Origin: a virus
Length of the DNA: 64,000 nucleotides
Reading direction: 5' to 3' (one strand)
IMG/VR virus record: IMGVR_UViG_3300045988_010345
The notes beneath the pieces were generated by a model. The model did no database searches. It had not been told where the DNA came from and saw only the letters and a list, made by a program, of their open reading frames with translations. Below, in pieces: positions 1,671-55,081 of this stretch (its first letter is position 1; each line of letters begins with the position of its first letter). The translations under genes were made by a program, and so were the position numbers.

Positions 1671-2114
1671 TTAAAGGTTAGTAGGGTCAAAAGGAGCCTC
1701 TTCACCAGCTTTTACTTCTGTCTCAGGTGCCTTCTCAGTGTCATCTACTGTCTCAGGAGCAACATCTTCAACCTCAGGCTCCTCTGTATGAATCTCATAC
1801 ACATTAGCCTCTTCATTGAATACTACTGTACCAGCCTTAGGCTCATACTTAGTAACCTTTATAGGCTTGCCATCCTTATCAACCTTACCAGTATCTTCTA
1901 CCTTCTTGACAACCAAGTCTTCACTTGTAAGACCACCTGTCAAAGCCTTAACACCCATCTCATGTCCTTCAATCTCCTCAGTCAGAGCATTATACTCTGC
2001 ATTGAGTTCATTAATCTTGGCAGCAATCTTATTCTTCTTTACTACCAAAGGATTAACATTCTGTGCAATTCTTTTTACACCTGCAAACTGTCTTACTGTT
2101 AATGTCTTATTCAT
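1671..2114 (-). CDS. hypothetical protein with acidic C-terminal tail
   Basis: 147-aa ORF packed in the minus-strand gene train. C-terminus is rich in E/D/P (EEPEVEDVAPETVDDTEKAPETE). Confidence 0.6.
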   Translation of the reverse strand: MNKTLTVRQFAGVKRIAQNVNPLVVKKNKIAAKINELNAEYNALTEEIEGHEMGVKALTGGLTSEDLVVKKVEDTGKVDKDGKPIKVTKYEPKAGTVVFNEEANVYEIHTEEPEVEDVAPETVDDTEKAPETEVKAGEEAPFDPTNL

Positions 2115-2126
2115 AATAATTGAACT

Positions 2127-2390
2127 TTAATATAATAAAATACCTCTATTGTTAATACTTAATTTAAACACGTTAAACTTGATAATATAGTAACCAATTG
2201 CAGTTACTATGCAATTAAGAATTATATACATTGGTGATTGAGGTAGTGTTTTAATAAACAAATCAATCTTACTTTTCTCTTTACCTCTTTCCAATAAGAA
2301 CTCTTCTAACATCTGTAACTGACTATTCATATCAAATGGTGTAATACCATATACTTGATTACCAAGTTCTACTGTCTTCTCTCTATCCAT
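2127..2390 (-). CDS. hypothetical small protein with C-terminal hydrophobic segment
   Basis: 87-aa ORF that overlaps the upstream gene by 8 nt. Contains the hydrophobic stretch MYIILNCIVTAIGYYII. Confidence 0.5.
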   Translation of the reverse strand: MDREKTVELGNQVYGITPFDMNSQLQMLEEFLLERGKEKSKIDLFIKTLPQSPMYIILNCIVTAIGYYIIKFNVFKLSINNRGILLY

Positions 2391-11276: not shown

Positions 11277-11306
11277 AAAAAGAAATTATTATTAAAATAC
11301 TTATTG

Positions 11307-11349
11307 TGGAGCATAGGGGGCTCGAACCCCTATAAACCAAAAATGCCCC
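11307..11349 (-). ncRNA. tRNA-Ala-like minihelix (acceptor stem plus T-arm only, no D or anticodon arm)
   Basis: Minus-strand RNA is GGGGCAU-UUUUGGUUUAU-AGGGG-UUCGAGC-CCCCU-AUGCUCC-A. It has a 7-bp acceptor stem with G3:U70 and discriminator A73, and a canonical T-arm. The 5' acceptor strand lies only 11 nt from the T-arm. Confidence 0.55.
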
Positions 11350-12296: not shown

Positions 12297-12357
12297 AATT
12301 ATAATTATTTTAATTGTATTTAAGGGAAATACCTGTAAAGGTATCTCCCTAAGTTTT

Positions 12358-12552
12358 TTAATCATTCCACATGTAAGCTTCATACTCACATGTTAATTCT
12401 CTTTCAGTCAGTTTTGCATCTTCAAGGTATGTCTTTAGAAATAAAGAACAATCATCAAAGCTATTGATATTATCTTCAAATTCTATACATAACCATTGTT
12501 CACAATATCTTACTGCTGCTTGCTGTCTTGCAGTTGATTTTCTTATTCTCAT
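12358..12552 (-). CDS. hypothetical small protein
   Basis: 64 aa; 4-nt overlap with the upstream gene. Confidence 0.5.
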   Translation of the reverse strand: MRIRKSTARQQAAVRYCEQWLCIEFEDNINSFDDCSLFLKTYLEDAKLTERELTCEYEAYMWND

Positions 12553-12857
12553 AGTCCCAAGAATTTCTTTATTCTAGTCCATAGTGTACTCTTTTCAGGC
12601 TTTAATAAAGCATTACCACTATTCTTTCTGTTTTTATATGTAGATTTTGAACCTATTGATATAAAGGAAATACCTACTTTAGTAGGATTATTCTTAGGTG
12701 ATAGTACTAAATACCAATGTTGTGAACAAGCTTTATAAGTTCTGTTTAAGTTCTTACTGGCTTCTTTAATAGCATCTGAAATATTATGAGGATTAGCTGC
12801 AATAGCCTGAACTAGAATTTTATTCTCCTCATCAGTCCATTTTACTCCTTTTGCCAT
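12549..12857 (-). CDS. Myb/SANT-like DNA-binding protein
   Basis: The ATG at 12857 gives MAKGVKWTDEENKILVQAI...CSQHWYLVL, with Trp spacing and a W-[ST]-x-EE-D/N start typical of Myb/SANT repeats. The track start at 12881 is a TTG. Confidence 0.45.
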   Translation of the reverse strand: MAKGVKWTDEENKILVQAIAANPHNISDAIKEASKNLNRTYKACSQHWYLVLSPKNNPTKVGISFISIGSKSTYKNRKNSGNALLKPEKSTLWTRIKKFLGL

Positions 12858-12868
12858 TTTTTTTTGTG

Positions 12869-12898
12869 TTATGAATACCAAATCTCAGGAATTTCCAT
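12869..12898 (-). CDS. conserved 9-codon mini-ORF MEIPEIWYS (copy 1)
   Basis: ATGGAAATTCCTGAGATTTGGTATTCATAA on the minus strand. It sits 9 nt after the stop of gene 12908..13396 and 11 nt before the ATG of the Myb-like gene. The identical peptide is encoded at 14736..14765 with synonymous codons. Confidence 0.55.
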   Translation of the reverse strand: MEIPEIWYS

Positions 12899-12907
12899 AT
12901 CTTATTT

Positions 12908-13396
12908 TTATTTACAAAGTGTATCAAGAATGTCTCTAAAGTTAGGATTATCAATTACTGCTTGAGCATCTTTAGCATACATAAACATAGCAGCCATCCC
13001 TGCTGGTTCAAAAGGAGAATTATCCAAGTCTTCTACAAAATATACATCTTTTAATTTATCATAGCCGATATAATAACCTACCCTCATATATTGTTTACCA
13101 TTATAATAATAAGCAATATTCATAAGCTTATTCAATGCAAGAAGTCTTTCTAGCTGTTTTCTATTTGGGGCGTTGTTTGGTTCTTCAAGAACTTCACCAA
13201 TATAATTATTTATAATATCTCCATCGGTATTTGTGTAATAACCTTCATTATTTGGAAATAAGCTCTTGCAAACATTTTTGTAAGTAAGATTACTAATATC
13301 TTTCTTAGACTTAAACTTGATACACTCAAATGTAGAATTTTCCTTATCTATTTCATAGCCTTTAGGGACATTTATTTTTATTTCTTTTGTTCTCAT
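12908..13396 (-). CDS. hypothetical protein
   Basis: 162-aa ORF. Confidence 0.65.
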   Translation of the reverse strand: MRTKEIKINVPKGYEIDKENSTFECIKFKSKKDISNLTYKNVCKSLFPNNEGYYTNTDGDIINNYIGEVLEEPNNAPNRKQLERLLALNKLMNIAYYYNGKQYMRVGYYIGYDKLKDVYFVEDLDNSPFEPAGMAAMFMYAKDAQAVIDNPNFRDILDTLCK

Positions 13397-13405
13397 ATTT
13401 TATAT

Positions 13406-13486
13406 TTATTTAAGAAGATAATCAAAAAGCATATAAAATAGTATGAATACTATAATGATTAGAATGAAAAAAGTTAATAATATCAT
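13406..13486 (-). CDS. possible 26-aa hydrophobic peptide
   Basis: MILLTFFILIIIVFILFYMLFDYLLK fills the otherwise empty gap between two genes. It is below the ORF-track size cutoff. Confidence 0.3.
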   Translation of the reverse strand: MILLTFFILIIIVFILFYMLFDYLLK

Positions 13487-13530
13487 ATGAATTTACTTTA
13501 GATATAAAGTAGGACAAAAGTCCTACTTTA

Positions 13531-14208
13531 TCATGGATTATTTGTAGTATTTACAAGATGTTCATTTCCTTCAAAAGGAATACACGTGGCATAGGCACAA
13601 TTAGTAGTAACATGACAGTATGCACTACGAGGTTCAAAATGAGAGTAGAAAGCGCATCTCCATTTTTGGGTCTCATTATCTCGTACAAGTACTTTCTCAA
13701 AAGGTTTAAATTGATATTCTTTCTTTTTTAAAGTTTCACCATCCCATGTATAACCTGCTTCATTTATGGCATTGAAAAGTTTCTTTTTCATGTCTTCTGA
13801 AGCTGGAATATAATCAATATTATATACATGTGTATTAAGTTTAAAGTTAGAATTTCTATCAACATATGTTATAGTACGTACATAACCATTTTCCATAGTA
13901 TCTACTATAAATACTCCAGATTTATCATCAAACATCATAATATCACCTCTTTTGGCAGGTATTTGGAATGCATCCCAATTTCTTTGGTCTTTTGATGGAA
14001 AAAGCATACATTCTGAATTTGGAAACTCACAATAGAATCTTCCAAAACAAGTAAAGGCTGCTGTTGTAATGTTCCCATTATCCTTTGTGACTCTACAAAA
14101 TATGTCATTGCTACTTGATATTTTTTTGAATGTTACCTCTCCAAATATAGGAGAATAAAGCTTTGTTCCTTCTGGACAATACTTTAAAATGTTTGCTAAA
14201 TTTGTCAT
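13531..14208 (-). CDS. hypothetical protein
   Basis: 225-aa ORF followed by the hairpin AAAGTAGGAC-AAAA-GTCCTACTTT (13506-13529). Confidence 0.65.
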   Translation of the reverse strand: MTNLANILKYCPEGTKLYSPIFGEVTFKKISSSNDIFCRVTKDNGNITTAAFTCFGRFYCEFPNSECMLFPSKDQRNWDAFQIPAKRGDIMMFDDKSGVFIVDTMENGYVRTITYVDRNSNFKLNTHVYNIDYIPASEDMKKKLFNAINEAGYTWDGETLKKKEYQFKPFEKVLVRDNETQKWRCAFYSHFEPRSAYCHVTTNCAYATCIPFEGNEHLVNTTNNP

Positions 14209-14302
14209 AATAATTTATTTATAGTCCTCCTACAGAATACTCTATAGGAGGAATTGTTAGTTACTTGTATATAATCTCTGTTTTACCTTCATACAAAGGT
14301 AA

Positions 14303-14581
14303 TTAAACACACCAACCACATCTGCCTACATGTAGTTTATTTTCTAGTTCATCGCAGATGCTATAATATTCTTCCTCTGTGATATTGTATTTGCGTAATA
14401 CTATCTCTGTTGGAGGCTCTGGCTCAAAGTGCATATTACTACAGCCATAAGCGTCTTCTTCTTCTCCTTCTTTATTGTCAAGAGTATCACCAAAATCAAT
14501 ACTACTAGCCTCTTTACCATTGATAGTAAATGTTTCTAATTCACAAGGTAAAGCATCATAAGGTTCAATAACTAGTTCCAT
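14303..14581 (-). CDS. small highly acidic protein
   Basis: 92 aa, rich in D/E (EGEEEDAY, EPEPPTE), with a C-terminal CGWC. Confidence 0.6.
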   Translation of the reverse strand: MELVIEPYDALPCELETFTINGKEASSIDFGDTLDNKEGEEEDAYGCSNMHFEPEPPTEIVLRKYNITEEEYYSICDELENKLHVGRCGWCV

Positions 14582-14607
14582 ATTTTTATTTTATTTAAAT
14601 ATTATAA

Positions 14608-14701
14608 ATGACCTTCATGACCAGTATTGTGCTGGGGCTAAGAAGGTATATGGGCATTAAGCCTTGACTTACTTTCGCTCATTCTGTGTCATGAAGGTCA
14701 T
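14608..14701. repeat. 14-bp perfect inverted repeat enclosing a 66-nt GC-richer loop (structured RNA candidate)
   Basis: ATGACCTTCATGAC (14608-14621) pairs with GTCATGAAGGTCAT (14688-14701) inside a 200-nt intergenic gap on the minus-strand transcript. Confidence 0.5.
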
Positions 14702-14735
14702 ATTATTCAAGTACTAGGTTAAACGCTTGGCTTTT

Positions 14736-14765
14736 CTAACTATACCAAATTTCTGGGATTTCCAT
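14736..14765 (-). CDS. conserved 9-codon mini-ORF MEIPEIWYS (copy 2)
   Basis: ATGGAAATCCCAGAAATTTGGTATAGTTAG on the minus strand. The peptide is the same as copy 1, with ATC/ATT, CCA/CCT, GAA/GAG and AGT/TCA codon differences and a different stop codon. Confidence 0.55.
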   Translation of the reverse strand: MEIPEIWYS

Positions 14766-14784
14766 AATTATACAATTTAGTATC

Positions 14785-15543
14785 TTAATCAAACAAGTTT
14801 TTTACTCTATTACCAAGAATCTCAACTGCTTTTATCGCATCTTTTTTATCCTTAAAGTATATAACTCCTGCATGTTGTACACTGCAATGCTGATATATAT
14901 CTACACCATTGCAAGTACAAACTACATTATTGCATCTACTACAATTACTAATGAAATATCCTGTATTGCTTATGGTTTTCTTCCAAGAGCCATTGAAGAA
15001 CTTAGCAATGACTGCCAAGTCTACAAGTGTATTATACTTCTCTGCTTCATCAACAGGGACATTGGCACAGAAGCATGTATTGCATACTTTACTGTTGATG
15101 TATTTGAAGTCGAGCTTCAATTCATCCTCAGTATATGCACTCAGTGCTAATGTACGCAATGTACTATCACCACTATTATACCACTTCATTGCCTGTTCAA
15201 GTGTTACCTTAATGTTTCTTTCCTCTTCCATGTTATCTGTTCTTTGTTTGTCAATGTCAAAATCACTTCCTGCTAAGCTGCCATTAACTAATCCAGCAGG
15301 CTGCTTGATAACTTGTCCATTTACCTTGGTAATATAGATGTCTACTAATGTCATTCCTTGTTGAACTCTATCAGTATCACAAGTAACCTCTACTACCATC
15401 ATCTTACCAGTGTATCTTGGGTCTTCTATTATATCATAGAGATGTATAGTATTATAGTTACACAAGAATTTATACTTCTTGTAAGAAGACATCTCATTGA
15501 GAAATACAGTTTTTTCTGTGAAAATTACAGTTATTGTTCGCAT
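14785..15543 (-). CDS. hypothetical Cys-rich protein
   Basis: 252 aa; the C-terminal half carries many Cys (CNTCFC..., CSRCNNVVCTCNG...HC). Confidence 0.65.
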   Translation of the reverse strand: MRTITVIFTEKTVFLNEMSSYKKYKFLCNYNTIHLYDIIEDPRYTGKMMVVEVTCDTDRVQQGMTLVDIYITKVNGQVIKQPAGLVNGSLAGSDFDIDKQRTDNMEEERNIKVTLEQAMKWYNSGDSTLRTLALSAYTEDELKLDFKYINSKVCNTCFCANVPVDEAEKYNTLVDLAVIAKFFNGSWKKTISNTGYFISNCSRCNNVVCTCNGVDIYQHCSVQHAGVIYFKDKKDAIKAVEILGNRVKNLFD

Positions 15544-15577
15544 GGCTTTTCTCCTATTATTTTTTTTTGTTTAATAG

Positions 15578-15679
15578 TTATTTGTTTAATTGTTCATTAG
15601 TACTTTTGGCATATTCTATCAATAAATATATGAATAGAATGCCAAGAATTTGTGCAAGGATGAATAGTATTATTTCCAT
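15578..15679 (-). CDS. possible 33-aa single-TM peptide
   Basis: MEIILFILAQILGILFIYLLIEYAKSTNEQLNK. Its ATG overlaps the stop of the upstream gene (ATGGAAATAA), and it fills the 15544-15669 gap. Confidence 0.35.
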   Translation of the reverse strand: MEIILFILAQILGILFIYLLIEYAKSTNEQLNK

Positions 15680-19206: not shown

Positions 19207-19378
19207 AAGTCTGAAATGTTAAATGGTTAATAATGTTAATTTTTTGACCTACGGGGTAGGACCCCCATAGGCTGAGTGATGGGGAGGGTGGGGTTGGTGT
19301 AAGTACCACTCCTAAAAATACAATAGAAAAAAAATTAAAAAAAATTATTTTTTATGCAATAAATTTTTTATTTATATA

Positions 19379-19410
19379 TTTGCACATATCAAAACTTTTA
19401 CCTACCTTTG
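19379..19410 (+). promoter_or_regulatory. Bacteroidota-type promoter (TTTG-N20-TACCTTTG)
   Basis: -33 TTTG at 19379-19382 and -7 TACCTTTG at 19403-19410 with exact 20-nt spacing, preceded by phased A/T tracts. Confidence 0.65.
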
Positions 19411-19707
19411 CATCCCAGTAGAGGTTAATGGTGGATTAACCTTTCACCCATGAGGTTAAAAAGTAATGGGTCAGAAGTTGGGTTAGTACTCTCACACTTA
19501 CATAGAGAGGAGGTTGTCCCCAATACTACTAAAATTGCTACTATATAAGTTAGATTGCATGAGCTATCCACCTGAGAAAAGGCACAGGGAATCATGCTAT
19601 AGGGGTATAATCAAGAACTGGTCTAATGAAGTTAGTAGTTAAAAGGAGATTAGAAATAACTCTTATGAAGCCATAACAAAGCTTCAGGGACATTACTATA
19701 TACAAGA

Positions 19708-20199: not shown

Positions 20200-20231
20200 T
20201 TTGGTGGTTTCAAATATTTTGCTTACCTTTG
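20200..20231 (+). promoter_or_regulatory. Bacteroidota-type promoter upstream of the tRNA array
   Basis: TTTG at 20200-20203, 20-nt spacer, TACCTTTG at 20224-20231. Confidence 0.65.
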
Positions 20232-20277
20232 CAAAGCAATTAAGAAGAGAGATTGGTTTTAGGAAATTTCCATTGTT

Positions 20278-21227: not shown

Positions 21228-21301
21228 TGCTCCTTAGTTCAGTGGTTTAGAACAGCTCTCTTACAAAGAGAAGGTCATTAGTTCAATTCTAATAGGAGCA
21301 A
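21228..21301 (+). tRNA. tRNA-Val (anticodon TAC)
   Basis: Acceptor TGCTCCT/AGGAGCA, D-arm GTTC-AGTGGTTTA-GAAC, loop CTTACAA, T-arm ATTAG-TTCAATT-CTAAT. Confidence 0.8.
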
Positions 21302-21308
21302 CATAAAT

Positions 21309-22478: not shown

Positions 22479-22511
22479 CTAAAAATAATTTGAAAAATAA
22501 TTAGGAAAATA

Positions 22512-22543
22512 TTTGGTTAATTGAAATATTTTACTTAACTTTG
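22512..22543 (+). promoter_or_regulatory. Bacteroidota-type promoter for the Dps-like gene and downstream tRNAs
   Basis: TTTG at 22512-22515, 20-nt spacer, TAACTTTG at 22536-22543, about 20 nt upstream of the ATG. Confidence 0.65.
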
Positions 22544-22563
22544 CACCATCAAAATAAGAGAAT

Positions 22564-23110: not shown

Positions 23111-23184
23111 GCCTCCTTAGTGTTAATGGTTTAGCAAGCCTGTCTTGTAAACAGGAAGAGAGGGTTCAAATCCTTCAGGAGGCT
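23111..23184 (+). tRNA. tRNA-Thr (anticodon TGT)
   Basis: Acceptor GCCTCCT/AGGAGGC, anticodon stem CCTGT/ACAGG, loop CTTGTAA, T-arm GAGGG-TTCAAAT-CCTTC. Confidence 0.8.
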
Positions 23185-28789: not shown

Positions 28790-28833
28790 ATTTAGTAAAA
28801 ATGAAGACTAATGGTTAATAAATTACTTATATA

Positions 28834-28865
28834 CTTGCATAGGTCAAGGATTTTATTTACCTTTG
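28834..28865 (+). promoter_or_regulatory. Bacteroidota-type promoter upstream of the portal operon
   Basis: CTTG at 28834-28837, 20-nt spacer, TACCTTTG at 28858-28865. TTGCATAG is repeated at both elements. Confidence 0.6.
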
Positions 28866-28887
28866 CATAGTAATTAAATTGAAGTAT

Positions 28888-39507: not shown

Positions 39508-39559
39508 GCCTATATTGCAAGTATTTTACTTATACAAGTAGAAGCAATTTATTTACTAT

Positions 39560-39591
39560 GTTGTAGATATGCAAAACTTTATTTACCTTTG
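39560..39591 (+). promoter_or_regulatory. Bacteroidota-type promoter of the capsid operon
   Basis: GTTG at 39560-39563, 20-nt spacer, TACCTTTG at 39584-39591. Confidence 0.65.
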
Positions 39592-39621
39592 CACTGTTTA
39601 AGAACAAAAAGGTAGAAGAGT

Positions 39622-47206: not shown

Positions 47207-47245
47207 TTATTACATTAATACTTCTGACATAAAAATAGTAAAATC

Positions 47246-47277
47246 CTTGTGTAACTGATAATAATTACTTATCTTTG
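47246..47277 (+). promoter_or_regulatory. Bacteroidota-type promoter of the tail operon
   Basis: CTTG at 47246-47249, 20-nt spacer, TATCTTTG at 47270-47277. It is embedded in the 12-bp inverted repeat AAAATCCTTGTG / CACAAGGATTTT. Confidence 0.6.
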
Positions 47278-47312
47278 CACAAGGATTTTTAGTTATAGTA
47301 AATAATGATGTT

Positions 47313-55021: not shown

Positions 55022-55031
55022 GGATAATATC

Positions 55032-55063
55032 CTTGTATAATTCAAATACTTTGTTTATCTTTG
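55032..55063 (+). promoter_or_regulatory. Bacteroidota-type promoter of the giant-protein operon
   Basis: CTTG at 55032-55035, 20-nt spacer, TATCTTTG at 55056-55063. Confidence 0.65.
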
Positions 55064-55081
55064 CAAACAAATTAGTATGAT

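Follow-up and report, generated by a model that had tools for sequence, protein, structure and literature searches.

A 64,000-nucleotide (nt) stretch of viral DNA, IMG/VR virus record IMGVR_UViG_3300045988_010345 (hereafter the window, meaning the whole stretch), carries on its minus strand two copies of a nine-codon open reading frame (ORF) that encode the same peptide, MEIPEIWYS. The major capsid protein of the window shares 84.7% identity with its counterpart in Bacteroides phage crAss001 and 92% with the one in cr85_1, and the minus strand at 9-19 kb holds homologues of crAss001 gp100 (here a 252-amino-acid (aa) ORF) and gp97 (DUF1360). In crAss001 the right-end block is an early transcriptional module that is on 0-10 min after infection (PMC8375218). 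Both mini-ORFs lie within the presumed early region of the window, among transfer RNA (tRNA) genes and small ORFs of unknown function, and we infer their early expression from homology with the crAss001 module. The genes and features around them are as follows, with loci from related sequences numbered under the prefix L.

12549..12857, minus strand: Myb-like DNA-binding gene of 102 aa with its ATG at 12857 (Pfam PF13921, E = 6.7e-6; synteny in L004, L012, L030 and L032)
12858..12868, minus strand: 11 nt, cacaaaaaaaa, at the junction of a deletion of about 132 nt that is specific to the window, as judged by alignment with relatives
12898..12869, minus strand: mini-ORF copy 1 (type A), ATGGAAATTCCTGAGATTTGGTATTCATAA, encoding MEIPEIWYS and a stop
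12908..13396, minus strand: 162-aa ORF of unknown function, usually found to the left of type A, with its stop 9 nt upstream of copy 1
14765..14736, minus strand: mini-ORF copy 2 (type B), ATGGAAATCCCAGAAATTTGGTATAGTTAG, encoding MEIPEIWYS and a stop
14785..15543, minus strand: 252-aa ORF, homologue of crAss001 gp100 (41% identity), with its stop 19 nt upstream of copy 2

An earlier note, made from the letters of this stretch, had reported that the peptide is encoded twice, and both minus-strand copies read as it described. They differ at 6 of 27 coding nt, and every difference is synonymous (ATT/ATC, CCT/CCA, GAG/GAA, TCA/AGT); the last of these is a switch between the two serine codon families, and the stop codons differ as well (TAA vs TAG). 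The spacings that the note gave, 9 and 19 nt past the preceding stops and 11 nt from copy 1 to the Myb-like ATG, were likewise confirmed. Homology between types A and B begins at the ATG and stops at the stop codon. We looked for a longer recent duplication around the copies, but their flanks are unrelated, so the pair is not part of one. For the first eight codons, the degenerate pattern ATGGARATHCCNGARATHTGGTAY has two matches in the window, where 100 shuffles gave an expectation of 0.00. The initial pair was noticed through its peptide identity, and the first pattern used on databases admitted synonymous variants only.

Pattern searches, which had been proposed in the same note, returned 29 loci from scans of IMG/VR and of metagenomes. 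All crAss-like matches hold a nine-codon ORF with the same end point. Type A alleles end in TCA TAA and type B alleles in AGT TAG, or in AGT TAA in L015. An allele identical to copy 1 was found in L003, L004, L006, L009, L011, L012, L014, L024 and L031 and one identical to copy 2 in L012 and L016, with near-identical type B alleles in about 15 other loci. The possibility that the peptide is the N-terminus of a longer gene was rejected, as metagenomes and 185,579 genomes, when scanned with patterns, yielded only chance-level and out-of-context matches outside the phage clade (L008/L017, L023/L070, L069, L071 and L072).

Across 38 instances, the mini-ORF adjoins at least 6 different sequences on its upstream side and at least 8 on its downstream side. 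The downstream contexts include a terminator-like hairpin with tRNA-Arg(CCT), two structured RNAs that we call D2 and D3, a tRNA-like segment and small protein genes, and the Myb-like gene is the direct downstream neighbour in the window only. The alleles of L010, L013 and L022 are chimeric, with a 5' half of type A and a 3' half of type B and with rearranged gene order around them, which indicates that homologous recombination occurs inside the 30-nt unit. In L021 (1297-1608, plus strand), as well as in L001, L005, L007, L025-L027 and L029, an upstream membrane-protein gene of the 79-aa type has no stop of its own; it runs through the mini-ORF in another frame to the TAG of GTA TAG, with complete overlap of the two frames.

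Because the first pattern could find only synonymous variants, we controlled for this bias by fetching relatives with the flanking 162-aa and 252-aa proteins only and reading the sequence past their stops. The alleles recovered in this way encode MKVPEIWYS (L030), MEVPEIWYS (L032) and MEIPEIWYS (L031), along with MEIPEIPEIWYS (L054) and MEIPEIPEIWYG (L053), which carry an in-frame 9-nt duplication. Following the 252-aa gene, the mini-ORF is found in 4 of the 24 homologues examined, namely the window and, from the 23 fetched, L046, L053 and L054. In this flank-recovered set the N-terminal ME(I) is soft and the core PEIWY firm, and the peptide is less rigid than the first pair suggests.

These mini-ORFs appear to belong to a wider family of tiny ORFs, 9 to about 28 codons in length, located in the early-gene region of crAss001-like phages (Steigviridae, Asinivirinae). 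Members share a C-terminal signature, [F/Y]-x-P-E-[I/V/L]-W-[Y/F] with an optional Ser, placed directly before the stop. Their placement is shared too: each forms the end of a coding block, anywhere from a 17-nt overlap to a 22-nt gap relative to the preceding stop, and what comes after it is untranslated, be it a tRNA behind a terminator-like hairpin, a structured RNA or a TROVE/Ro60 promoter. The long form has 13-18 codons and reads M..TTFEYG.DY[L/I]PE[I/L]WY(S)-stop. In a peptide-level scan of fetched GenBank loci, crAss001 itself was found to carry a 17-codon ORF, METTFEYGNDYLPEIWY-stop, which overlaps the end of gp97, holds the identical 15-mer CCTGAGATTTGGTAT and stops some 30 nt before the -33 element of the Bacteroides-type promoter (TTTG-N20-TAtcTTTG) of the TROVE/Ro60 gene gp96. 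A frameshift fusion with gp97 was ruled out by a TAG immediately before the ATG in the frame of the ORF. The family ORF is MKTTFEYGKDYLPEIWY-stop in cr112_1 and MTTFEYGNGYLPEIWY-stop in cr106_1, the latter with CCAGAGATATGGTAT, an ATGA overlap with the preceding stop and a deletion of codon 2. In PhiCrAssBcn4 the ORF has been lost, and a decayed long-form remnant is seen there, in L105 and in others.

A pattern for the last eight codons, which leaves the N-terminal halves unconstrained, gave 21 IMG/VR loci, and in these loci the N-terminal halves are conserved as peptide. One of them, L093 on a 175-kb contig, encodes MTYGKDYLPEIWY-stop with synonymous changes only (TAC, GGA, GAC, CTC, CCA, GAA, TAC). 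A further 54 IMG/VR loci were fetched by the TROVE protein alone, and 24 of the 54 have the form ...PEIWY-stop, 87-109 nt before the TROVE ATG. L133 and L156 encode MK[E/D]KEEIDEFPPEVWYS-stop, a sub-family ending in PPEVWYS-stop, in which AGT TAA (L133) vs TCA TAA (L156) constitutes a second independent switch of serine codon family. Seven TROVE loci (L131, L136, L139, L153, L154 and L155 among them) have ORFs of 26-28 codons that end in ...YKGSYWY-stop or ...YEGEYWF-stop, and the remaining ones have no ORF or a decayed remnant. Neither the window nor any of the short-family contigs sampled has the TROVE gene, which rules out an obligatory link between the mini-ORF and TROVE/Ro60. The TROVE/Ro60-like protein is itself encoded in the early region of crAss001 (L074 4392-5810) and of at least 54 IMG/VR relatives (L103-L156). 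After the crAss001 gene lie two tRNA-like sequences with large internal insertions (L074 6085-6480), which recall bacterial Y RNAs of the YrlA type.

Kolpuevirus genomes, including that of the cultured phage 'frurule', encode MTTTFEYGRDYIPELWYS-stop, MITTFEYGRDYIPELWY-stop and MKYEYGRDCIPEIWYS-stop, all with TGA stops. Here the long micro-ORF overlaps the start of a 47-50-aa gene in another frame, and comparison of cr126_1 with frurule gives 3 synonymous changes in the micro-ORF frame vs 0 in the other. The overlapped 47-50-aa protein is conserved and acidic (MEEIISQNSGTVDIWDD...; L157 720-872, L158, L159 702-845). Over four genera the PE[I/V/L]WY core is kept despite change in the DNA (CCTGAGATTTGG, CCAGAGATATGG, CCAGAACTCTGG, CCGGAAGTGTGG), and in the long form the N-terminal TTFEYG is likewise conserved in three genera.

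To examine the coding signature, we tallied changes by parsimony over distinct alleles in the ORF frame and in the other two frames. In the short family, taking the flank-derived alleles, the ORF frame has 7 synonymous vs 6 non-synonymous changes (neutral synonymous fraction 0.16, P = 0.002) and each of the other frames 2 vs 9; over the 10 unconstrained N-terminal codons of the long family the ORF frame has 6 vs 4 (neutral synonymous fraction 0.18, P = 0.003) and the others 0 vs 8 and 0 vs 9, these being small counts from related alleles whose changes are not fully independent, and hence indications rather than proofs. All indels are multiples of three (the 9-nt duplication of L053 and L054 and the codon-2 deletion of the cr106_1 type). 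The synonymous excess in the ORF frame only, the in-frame indels and the recurring serine switch support the earlier suggestion that selection acts on the peptide rather than on the DNA. The accompanying expectation, that third positions drift while the peptide is conserved, was borne out for the ORF, its frame and the PEIWY core, but the N-terminus varies and some relatives have no ORF. Read-through or recoding of the stop was considered and rejected: past the TAG of type B, an indel that separates the window from L001 breaks in-frame conservation, and type A, which shares the frame of the upstream gene in some relatives, does not do so in L012 or L022. Taken together, the sequence comparisons indicate that the peptide and its open frame are under purifying selection, and we are fairly confident that these mini-ORFs form a real, selected and translated micro-ORF family that does not act as a leader of the Myb-like gene.

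The alignment also bears on how the nine-codon form arose. In a MAFFT alignment, the window copies differ from the frurule type by a single 8-nt gap, TATGGAA[GAGACTGC]ATCCCAGAAATCTGGTATAGCTGA, and the nine-codon form appears to be derived from a frurule-like form of 16-18 codons via an 8-nt deletion. The deletion brings the ATG of T-ATG-GAA in frame with ATC CCA GAA ATT TGG TAT AGT, where the long form reads TAT GGA, and the short ORF thus consists of M-E and the last seven residues of the long peptide (IPEIWYS). The ATG recruited as the start of the window's form is the ATG of the Kolpuevirus 47-50-aa gene. Since translation of the heptapeptide was rescued after the original start was lost, we argue that this C-terminal heptapeptide is probably the selected, functional part.

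What such a peptide might do is less certain. The reading that we favor, with a probability of roughly 0.4, is that the mini-ORF is an autonomous translated micro-cistron that closes a coding block of the early region and acts in cis at its own ribosome. The conserved C-terminal residues would slow termination, leaving a ribosome parked at the end of the last cistron, and the parked ribosome would couple the fate of the adjacent untranslated RNA (its read-through, processing or folding) to translation, much as with TnaC (PMC8450073) or PepNL (PMC11890864), two short peptides known to inhibit termination at the stop codon of their own ORF. A held ribosome could also shield or remodel neighbouring RNA, for example the basal stem of D2, which begins 7 nt past the type B stop. 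The 30-nt unit behaves as a portable module, entering many junctions of the mosaic early region by recombination. Our preference for action in cis over a free peptide is slight. The features that fit arrest peptides are conservation next to the stop with a free N-terminus and length, multiple local copies at different junctions, and tight coupling to upstream translation. As in arrest peptides, the stop-adjacent PE[I/V/L]W[Y/F](S) is common to sub-families that differ in N-terminus and length.

Several observations, besides the smallness of the tallies given above, weigh against this proposal. The mini-ORF appears to be dispensable, as it is absent from 20 of the 23 fetched relatives of the 252-aa gene, from about 40% of TROVE loci and from the cultured PhiCrAssBcn4, and in L046 its TGG has become TAG. 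The earlier note had held that relatives with no ORF or with a disrupted frame would speak against a selected peptide; many such relatives exist, as does the L046 nonsense allele, but the frame is kept in the other alleles. Past the stop there is no conserved RNA structure or spacing, the strong hairpin being found with type A only, and copy 2 of the window has no hairpin next to its stop. No alternative pairing that might serve as an antiterminator was found in minimum-energy or centroid folds. Some sub-families have an extra Ser after WY, which would displace the peptide by one residue with respect to the peptidyl-transferase centre. Finally, transcription of the early genes is probably the work of the virion RNA polymerase, which may not be coupled to ribosomes or Rho.

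Instead of acting at its own ribosome, the product could be a free effector, a possibility that we rate as only slightly less probable. A released peptide of 9-17 residues, acidic and aromatic, would bind a host or phage protein via [F/Y]xPE[I/V]W[Y/F], and the second copy in the window genome would raise its dose. This proposal shares the evidence of coding selection, and it accounts most economically for the variable downstream contexts, in which the layouts amount to a gene plus terminator (type A), a gene plus the next transcription unit (crAss001 type) or a gene plus an RNA gene, with no common target in cis. It would also accommodate the conservation of TTFEYG in the long form and the tolerance of an added C-terminal Ser. 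On the other hand, a 30-nt unit that hops among junctions is more typical of cis elements, and there is no consistent partner gene: TROVE is missing from the short-family contigs, and no Pfam domain was found in the ORFs neighbouring the mini-ORFs, the 162-aa ORF included, apart from the Myb-like one. To our knowledge, no directly translated, unprocessed 9-residue peptide of bacteria or phages has an established function in trans. The C-terminal tails of FtsZ and SSB ([D/E]-I-P-x-Phi-Phi) may bear some resemblance to the peptide, to which we attach no importance. A peptide of the arbitrium type was ruled out, as nine codons leave no room for a signal peptide and the Myb-like gene is the only neighbour with a Pfam domain.

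It is improbable that the conserved unit is a DNA or RNA element with an incidental ORF, either a boundary linker resembling the T4 PeSL or lambdoid ones or a Bacteroides-type promoter. The unit does sit exactly at mosaic junctions, and the chimeras prove crossing-over within it; moreover, the 15-mer is identical in crAss001 while the neighbouring proteins are only about 41% identical. In the promoter version, type B would hold a -7 box, GAAATTTG, and a -33 ATTG, 19 nt apart; GA[A/G]ATTTG resembles TAnnTTTG, and the predicted transcription start coincides with the 5' end of D2 and D3. However, alleles that retain the peptide have lost the TTTG (ATATGG in cr106_1, CTCTGG in Kolpuevirus, GTGTGG in L133 and L156), type A has no -33 element, and the canonical promoters of the phage differ, with TTTACCTTTGCA; the promoter was rejected on the first and last of these grounds. 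Variation in the unit follows codon periodicity and is synonymous in no frame but that of the ORF, and the conserved block is bounded exactly by ATG and stop. A role as recombination substrate fits a conserved coding unit and is probably a by-product of it. In phage phi14:2, the early promoters of the virion polymerase have no common motif (bioRxiv 10.1101/2020.03.07.982082).

We are similarly doubtful that the short form is a decaying, functionless remnant of the overlap between the long micro-ORF and the 47-50-aa gene, kept by recent spread. Its origin by an 8-nt deletion, its absence from many relatives, the nonsense mutation in L046 and the visible decay of the long form in PhiCrAssBcn4, L105 and others would all be expected of such a remnant. 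Yet types A and B, despite divergence at 6 of 27 positions and in both flanks, encode the same peptide and stop at the same codon, the further alleles are synonymous or conservative, and the 9-nt duplication keeps the frame. A neutral stretch of 30 nt would not hold its start, frame and stop in at least 10 distinct alleles.

The earlier note had likened copy 1 to the cat and cmlA leaders, as a leader peptide for the Myb/SANT-like gene, and this did not survive comparison with relatives. In ten of them (L004, L006, L009, L011, L012, L014, L024 and L030-L032) the order is the 162-aa gene, type A, 18 nt, a hairpin, tRNA-Arg(CCT) and then the Myb-like gene. The hairpin, GGGAGTATA-gaaa-TATACTCCC-TTTT, consists of a 10-bp stem with a GAAA loop, followed by a T-run (z -3.2 to -5.9), and the side of the Myb-like gene reads ...aacataacacaaaATGGCAAAAGG. 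The window is without 132 nt of this arrangement (compared with L004, L012, L030 and L032), with TAA/CATAA microhomology at the junction; the deletion took the terminator-like hairpin and tRNA-Arg(CCT) and fused the stop of the mini-ORF to the leader of the Myb-like gene, so that the 11-nt spacing is the product of a window-only event. No RNA structure was found between copy 1 and the Myb-like start, where the stop codon and 48 nt fold at 0.0 kcal/mol. Together, the deletion and the lack of structure remove the main support for a leader of the cat/cmlA kind. Neither copy in the window is followed by the hairpin, and the crAss001 type also lacks it; a hairpin after the stop was thus rejected as a universal feature, being true of type A only. 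An attenuator was rejected as well, as no antiterminator was found. Although the adjacency in the window, the nine-codon size shared with the cat and cmlA leaders and the hairpin after type A in relatives might seem to favor a leader of the cat/cmlA/erm or trpL type, control of the Myb-like gene is very unlikely, given an adjacency unique to the window, a start not sequestered by a hairpin, the lack of an antiterminator alternative, a peptide with single Trp and Tyr codons and no run of regulatory codons, and the placement of copy 2 and most family members before non-coding RNAs or a promoter.

Two features lie downstream of copy 2.

14702..14735, minus strand: conserved 3' flank of type B, aaaagccaagcgtttaacc..., which forms the basal stem of the downstream structured RNA in D2-type relatives
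14608..14701, minus strand: structured RNA D3, about 94 nt, directly after copy 2, with a 14-bp closing stem round a conserved core (z = -3.8)

The D3 closing stem has six compensatory pairs, and in L015 the stem is entirely different yet complementary round the same core. D3 is also found in L012 (7884-7989), L013, L010 and L022. In L015 (2564-2640) it lies beside tRNA-Arg(TCT) with no adjacent mini-ORF, which indicates that it is an independent module. D3 has no Rfam match and is a candidate new phage non-coding RNA. The second structured RNA, D2, is about 115 nt long and follows type B mini-ORFs in L007 (89-200), L002, L018, L019, L020 and L053; it is not present in the window. Its basal stem, CAAGCAUU/GAUGCUUG, begins 7 nt past the stop and has three compensatory pairs, a pseudoknot is possible (GGGAAU...GUUCCC interleaved with GAGAAGU...ACUUCUC), and it too has no Rfam match. 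IMG/VR scans for the two RNAs added little. No known RNA or tRNA was found at the mini-ORFs by Rfam, at the gathering threshold over the whole window and in E-value mode over 14250-14850, or by ARAGORN.

The surrounding region has other features of its own. A megablast search with 12300-15600 for a near-identical public phage gave no hit, nor did a blastn search with the type B module against 50,697 GenBank phages. The last 26 nt of a transfer-messenger RNA (tmRNA) gene remain at 11306-11331 (minus strand), the gene being otherwise deleted in the window. In relatives the phage tmRNA is present (L012 3821-4203, L021 2929-3306 and others; Rfam RF00023, 69 bits), encodes the tag GNTSYRVAA-stop or GNSYRVVA-stop and adjoins tRNA-Arg(CCT) and tRNA-Arg(TCT). 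On the plus strand of the window a motif, TTTG-N~20-TA(c/t)CTTTGCA, is repeated that fits the consensus of the Bacteroides primary sigma factor (-33 TTTG, -7 TAnnTTTG); its sites, at 19368-19413, 20210-20243, 22501-22546, 28823-28877, 39549-39594, 47239-47279 and 55025-55075, precede the tRNA array and blocks of structural genes. Two tRNA predictions, at 21228-21302 and 23111-23184 (both plus strand), stand out: a tRNA-Cys has the unusual anticodon ACA, and the tRNA at 23111-23184 has an Rfam match of 51.9 bits and was missed by ARAGORN. In L022, which has one of the chimeric mini-ORFs, ARAGORN predicts a tRNA at 2060-2132 (minus strand) with anticodon TTA, which reads UAA and resembles an ochre suppressor.

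Among known systems, the arrest peptides (E. coli TnaC, PepNL and SpeFL) resemble the family in being very short ORFs with conserved stop-proximal residues and a variable N-terminus and length. They act on their own ribosome and control downstream RNA (PMC8450073, PMC11890864), which for the family is proposed only. Arrest peptides lie in the 5' leader of one operon, whereas the family ORF closes a coding block before many different elements; family members use TAA, TAG and TGA as stops, and their sequence, judged by eye, is unrelated to that of the arrest peptides. The cat86, cmlA and ermC leaders are comparable in their intercistronic position and, for cat and cmlA, in their length of about nine codons, and in them too the peptide specifies the effect. 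In those leaders, however, a hairpin hides the ribosome-binding site of a resistance gene and the response is to an antibiotic, whereas the mini-ORF has no such hairpin and its downstream gene is variable. Initiation at Bacteroidetes genes is generally not dependent on a Shine-Dalgarno sequence.

The T4 PeSL cassettes and phage morons or boundary linkers are, like the mini-ORF, short repeated units that border variable genes and through which recombination reshuffles cassettes; for the mini-ORF, the different gene order in L013 and the chimeras L010, L013 and L022 show such reshuffling. The PeSL is non-coding (a promoter and a stem-loop), whereas the mini-ORF has a coding signature in one frame, no supported promoter and a stem-loop in type A only. 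The lambda bar minigenes are also phage ORFs of a few codons, and there translation itself has an effect; they have two codons, act by drop-off of peptidyl-tRNA and leave the peptide unconstrained, whereas the peptide of the mini-ORF is constrained. In Drosophila, the tarsal-less/polished rice gene likewise has several copies of a tiny ORF (11 aa) with a shared motif and an unprocessed product, although it is eukaryotic and shows no homology. Peptides encoded by small ORFs are as such a known kind, as described in microbiome and phage surveys (bioRxiv 10.1101/494179, PMC11364881, PMC11188072). At least one prokaryotic survey starts at 15 codons (PMC11188072), and the nine-codon form falls below that limit.

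A full-text literature search for the peptide core PEIWY returned no phage paper, and the micro-ORF is unannotated in the GenBank records examined (crAss001, cr112_1, cr106_1, cr126_1, PhiCrAssBcn25 and Kolpuevirus 'frurule'). The three 28-aa forms, the only members long enough for an exact look-up, are absent from a collection of 15 billion proteins. What appears to be new is therefore the family, its C-terminal signature, its position and the mobile 30-nt coding module, whereas the kind of element, a small-ORF peptide or regulatory micro-ORF, is already known. Gene callers set their thresholds above 9-17 codons, and genes of this size can be rescued by comparative evidence from synonymous drift, in-frame indels and switches of codon family. 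The comparison also corrects a tempting misreading, as the leader-like placement beside the Myb-like gene is an artefact of a deletion.

The crAss001-like phages are among the most abundant viruses of the human gut. The family lies in an early module that is expressed within minutes and during persistent carriage, next to tRNA, tmRNA, Ro60/TROVE and structured RNAs, and this part of crAss biology has hardly been explored. Long-form carriers are in culture, namely crAss001 in B. intestinalis and 'frurule' in B. cellulosilyticus, which makes the hypotheses directly testable. It is conceivable, if doubtful at present, that the peptides serve early in infection, either as a new class of termination-arrest peptides, which hold a ribosome where a coding block ends and so control how the untranslated RNAs of the phage (tRNAs, tmRNA, Ro60/TROVE-associated RNAs and novel structured RNAs) are expressed or matured, or as a mimic of a short linear motif that hijacks a host protein, and that in either case the 30-nt unit serves as a recombination linker that reshuffles the early region. 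If this is true, the genes for the PE[I/V/L]W[Y/F] peptides of 9-18 residues would rank with the smallest protein-coding genes for which purifying selection can be demonstrated.

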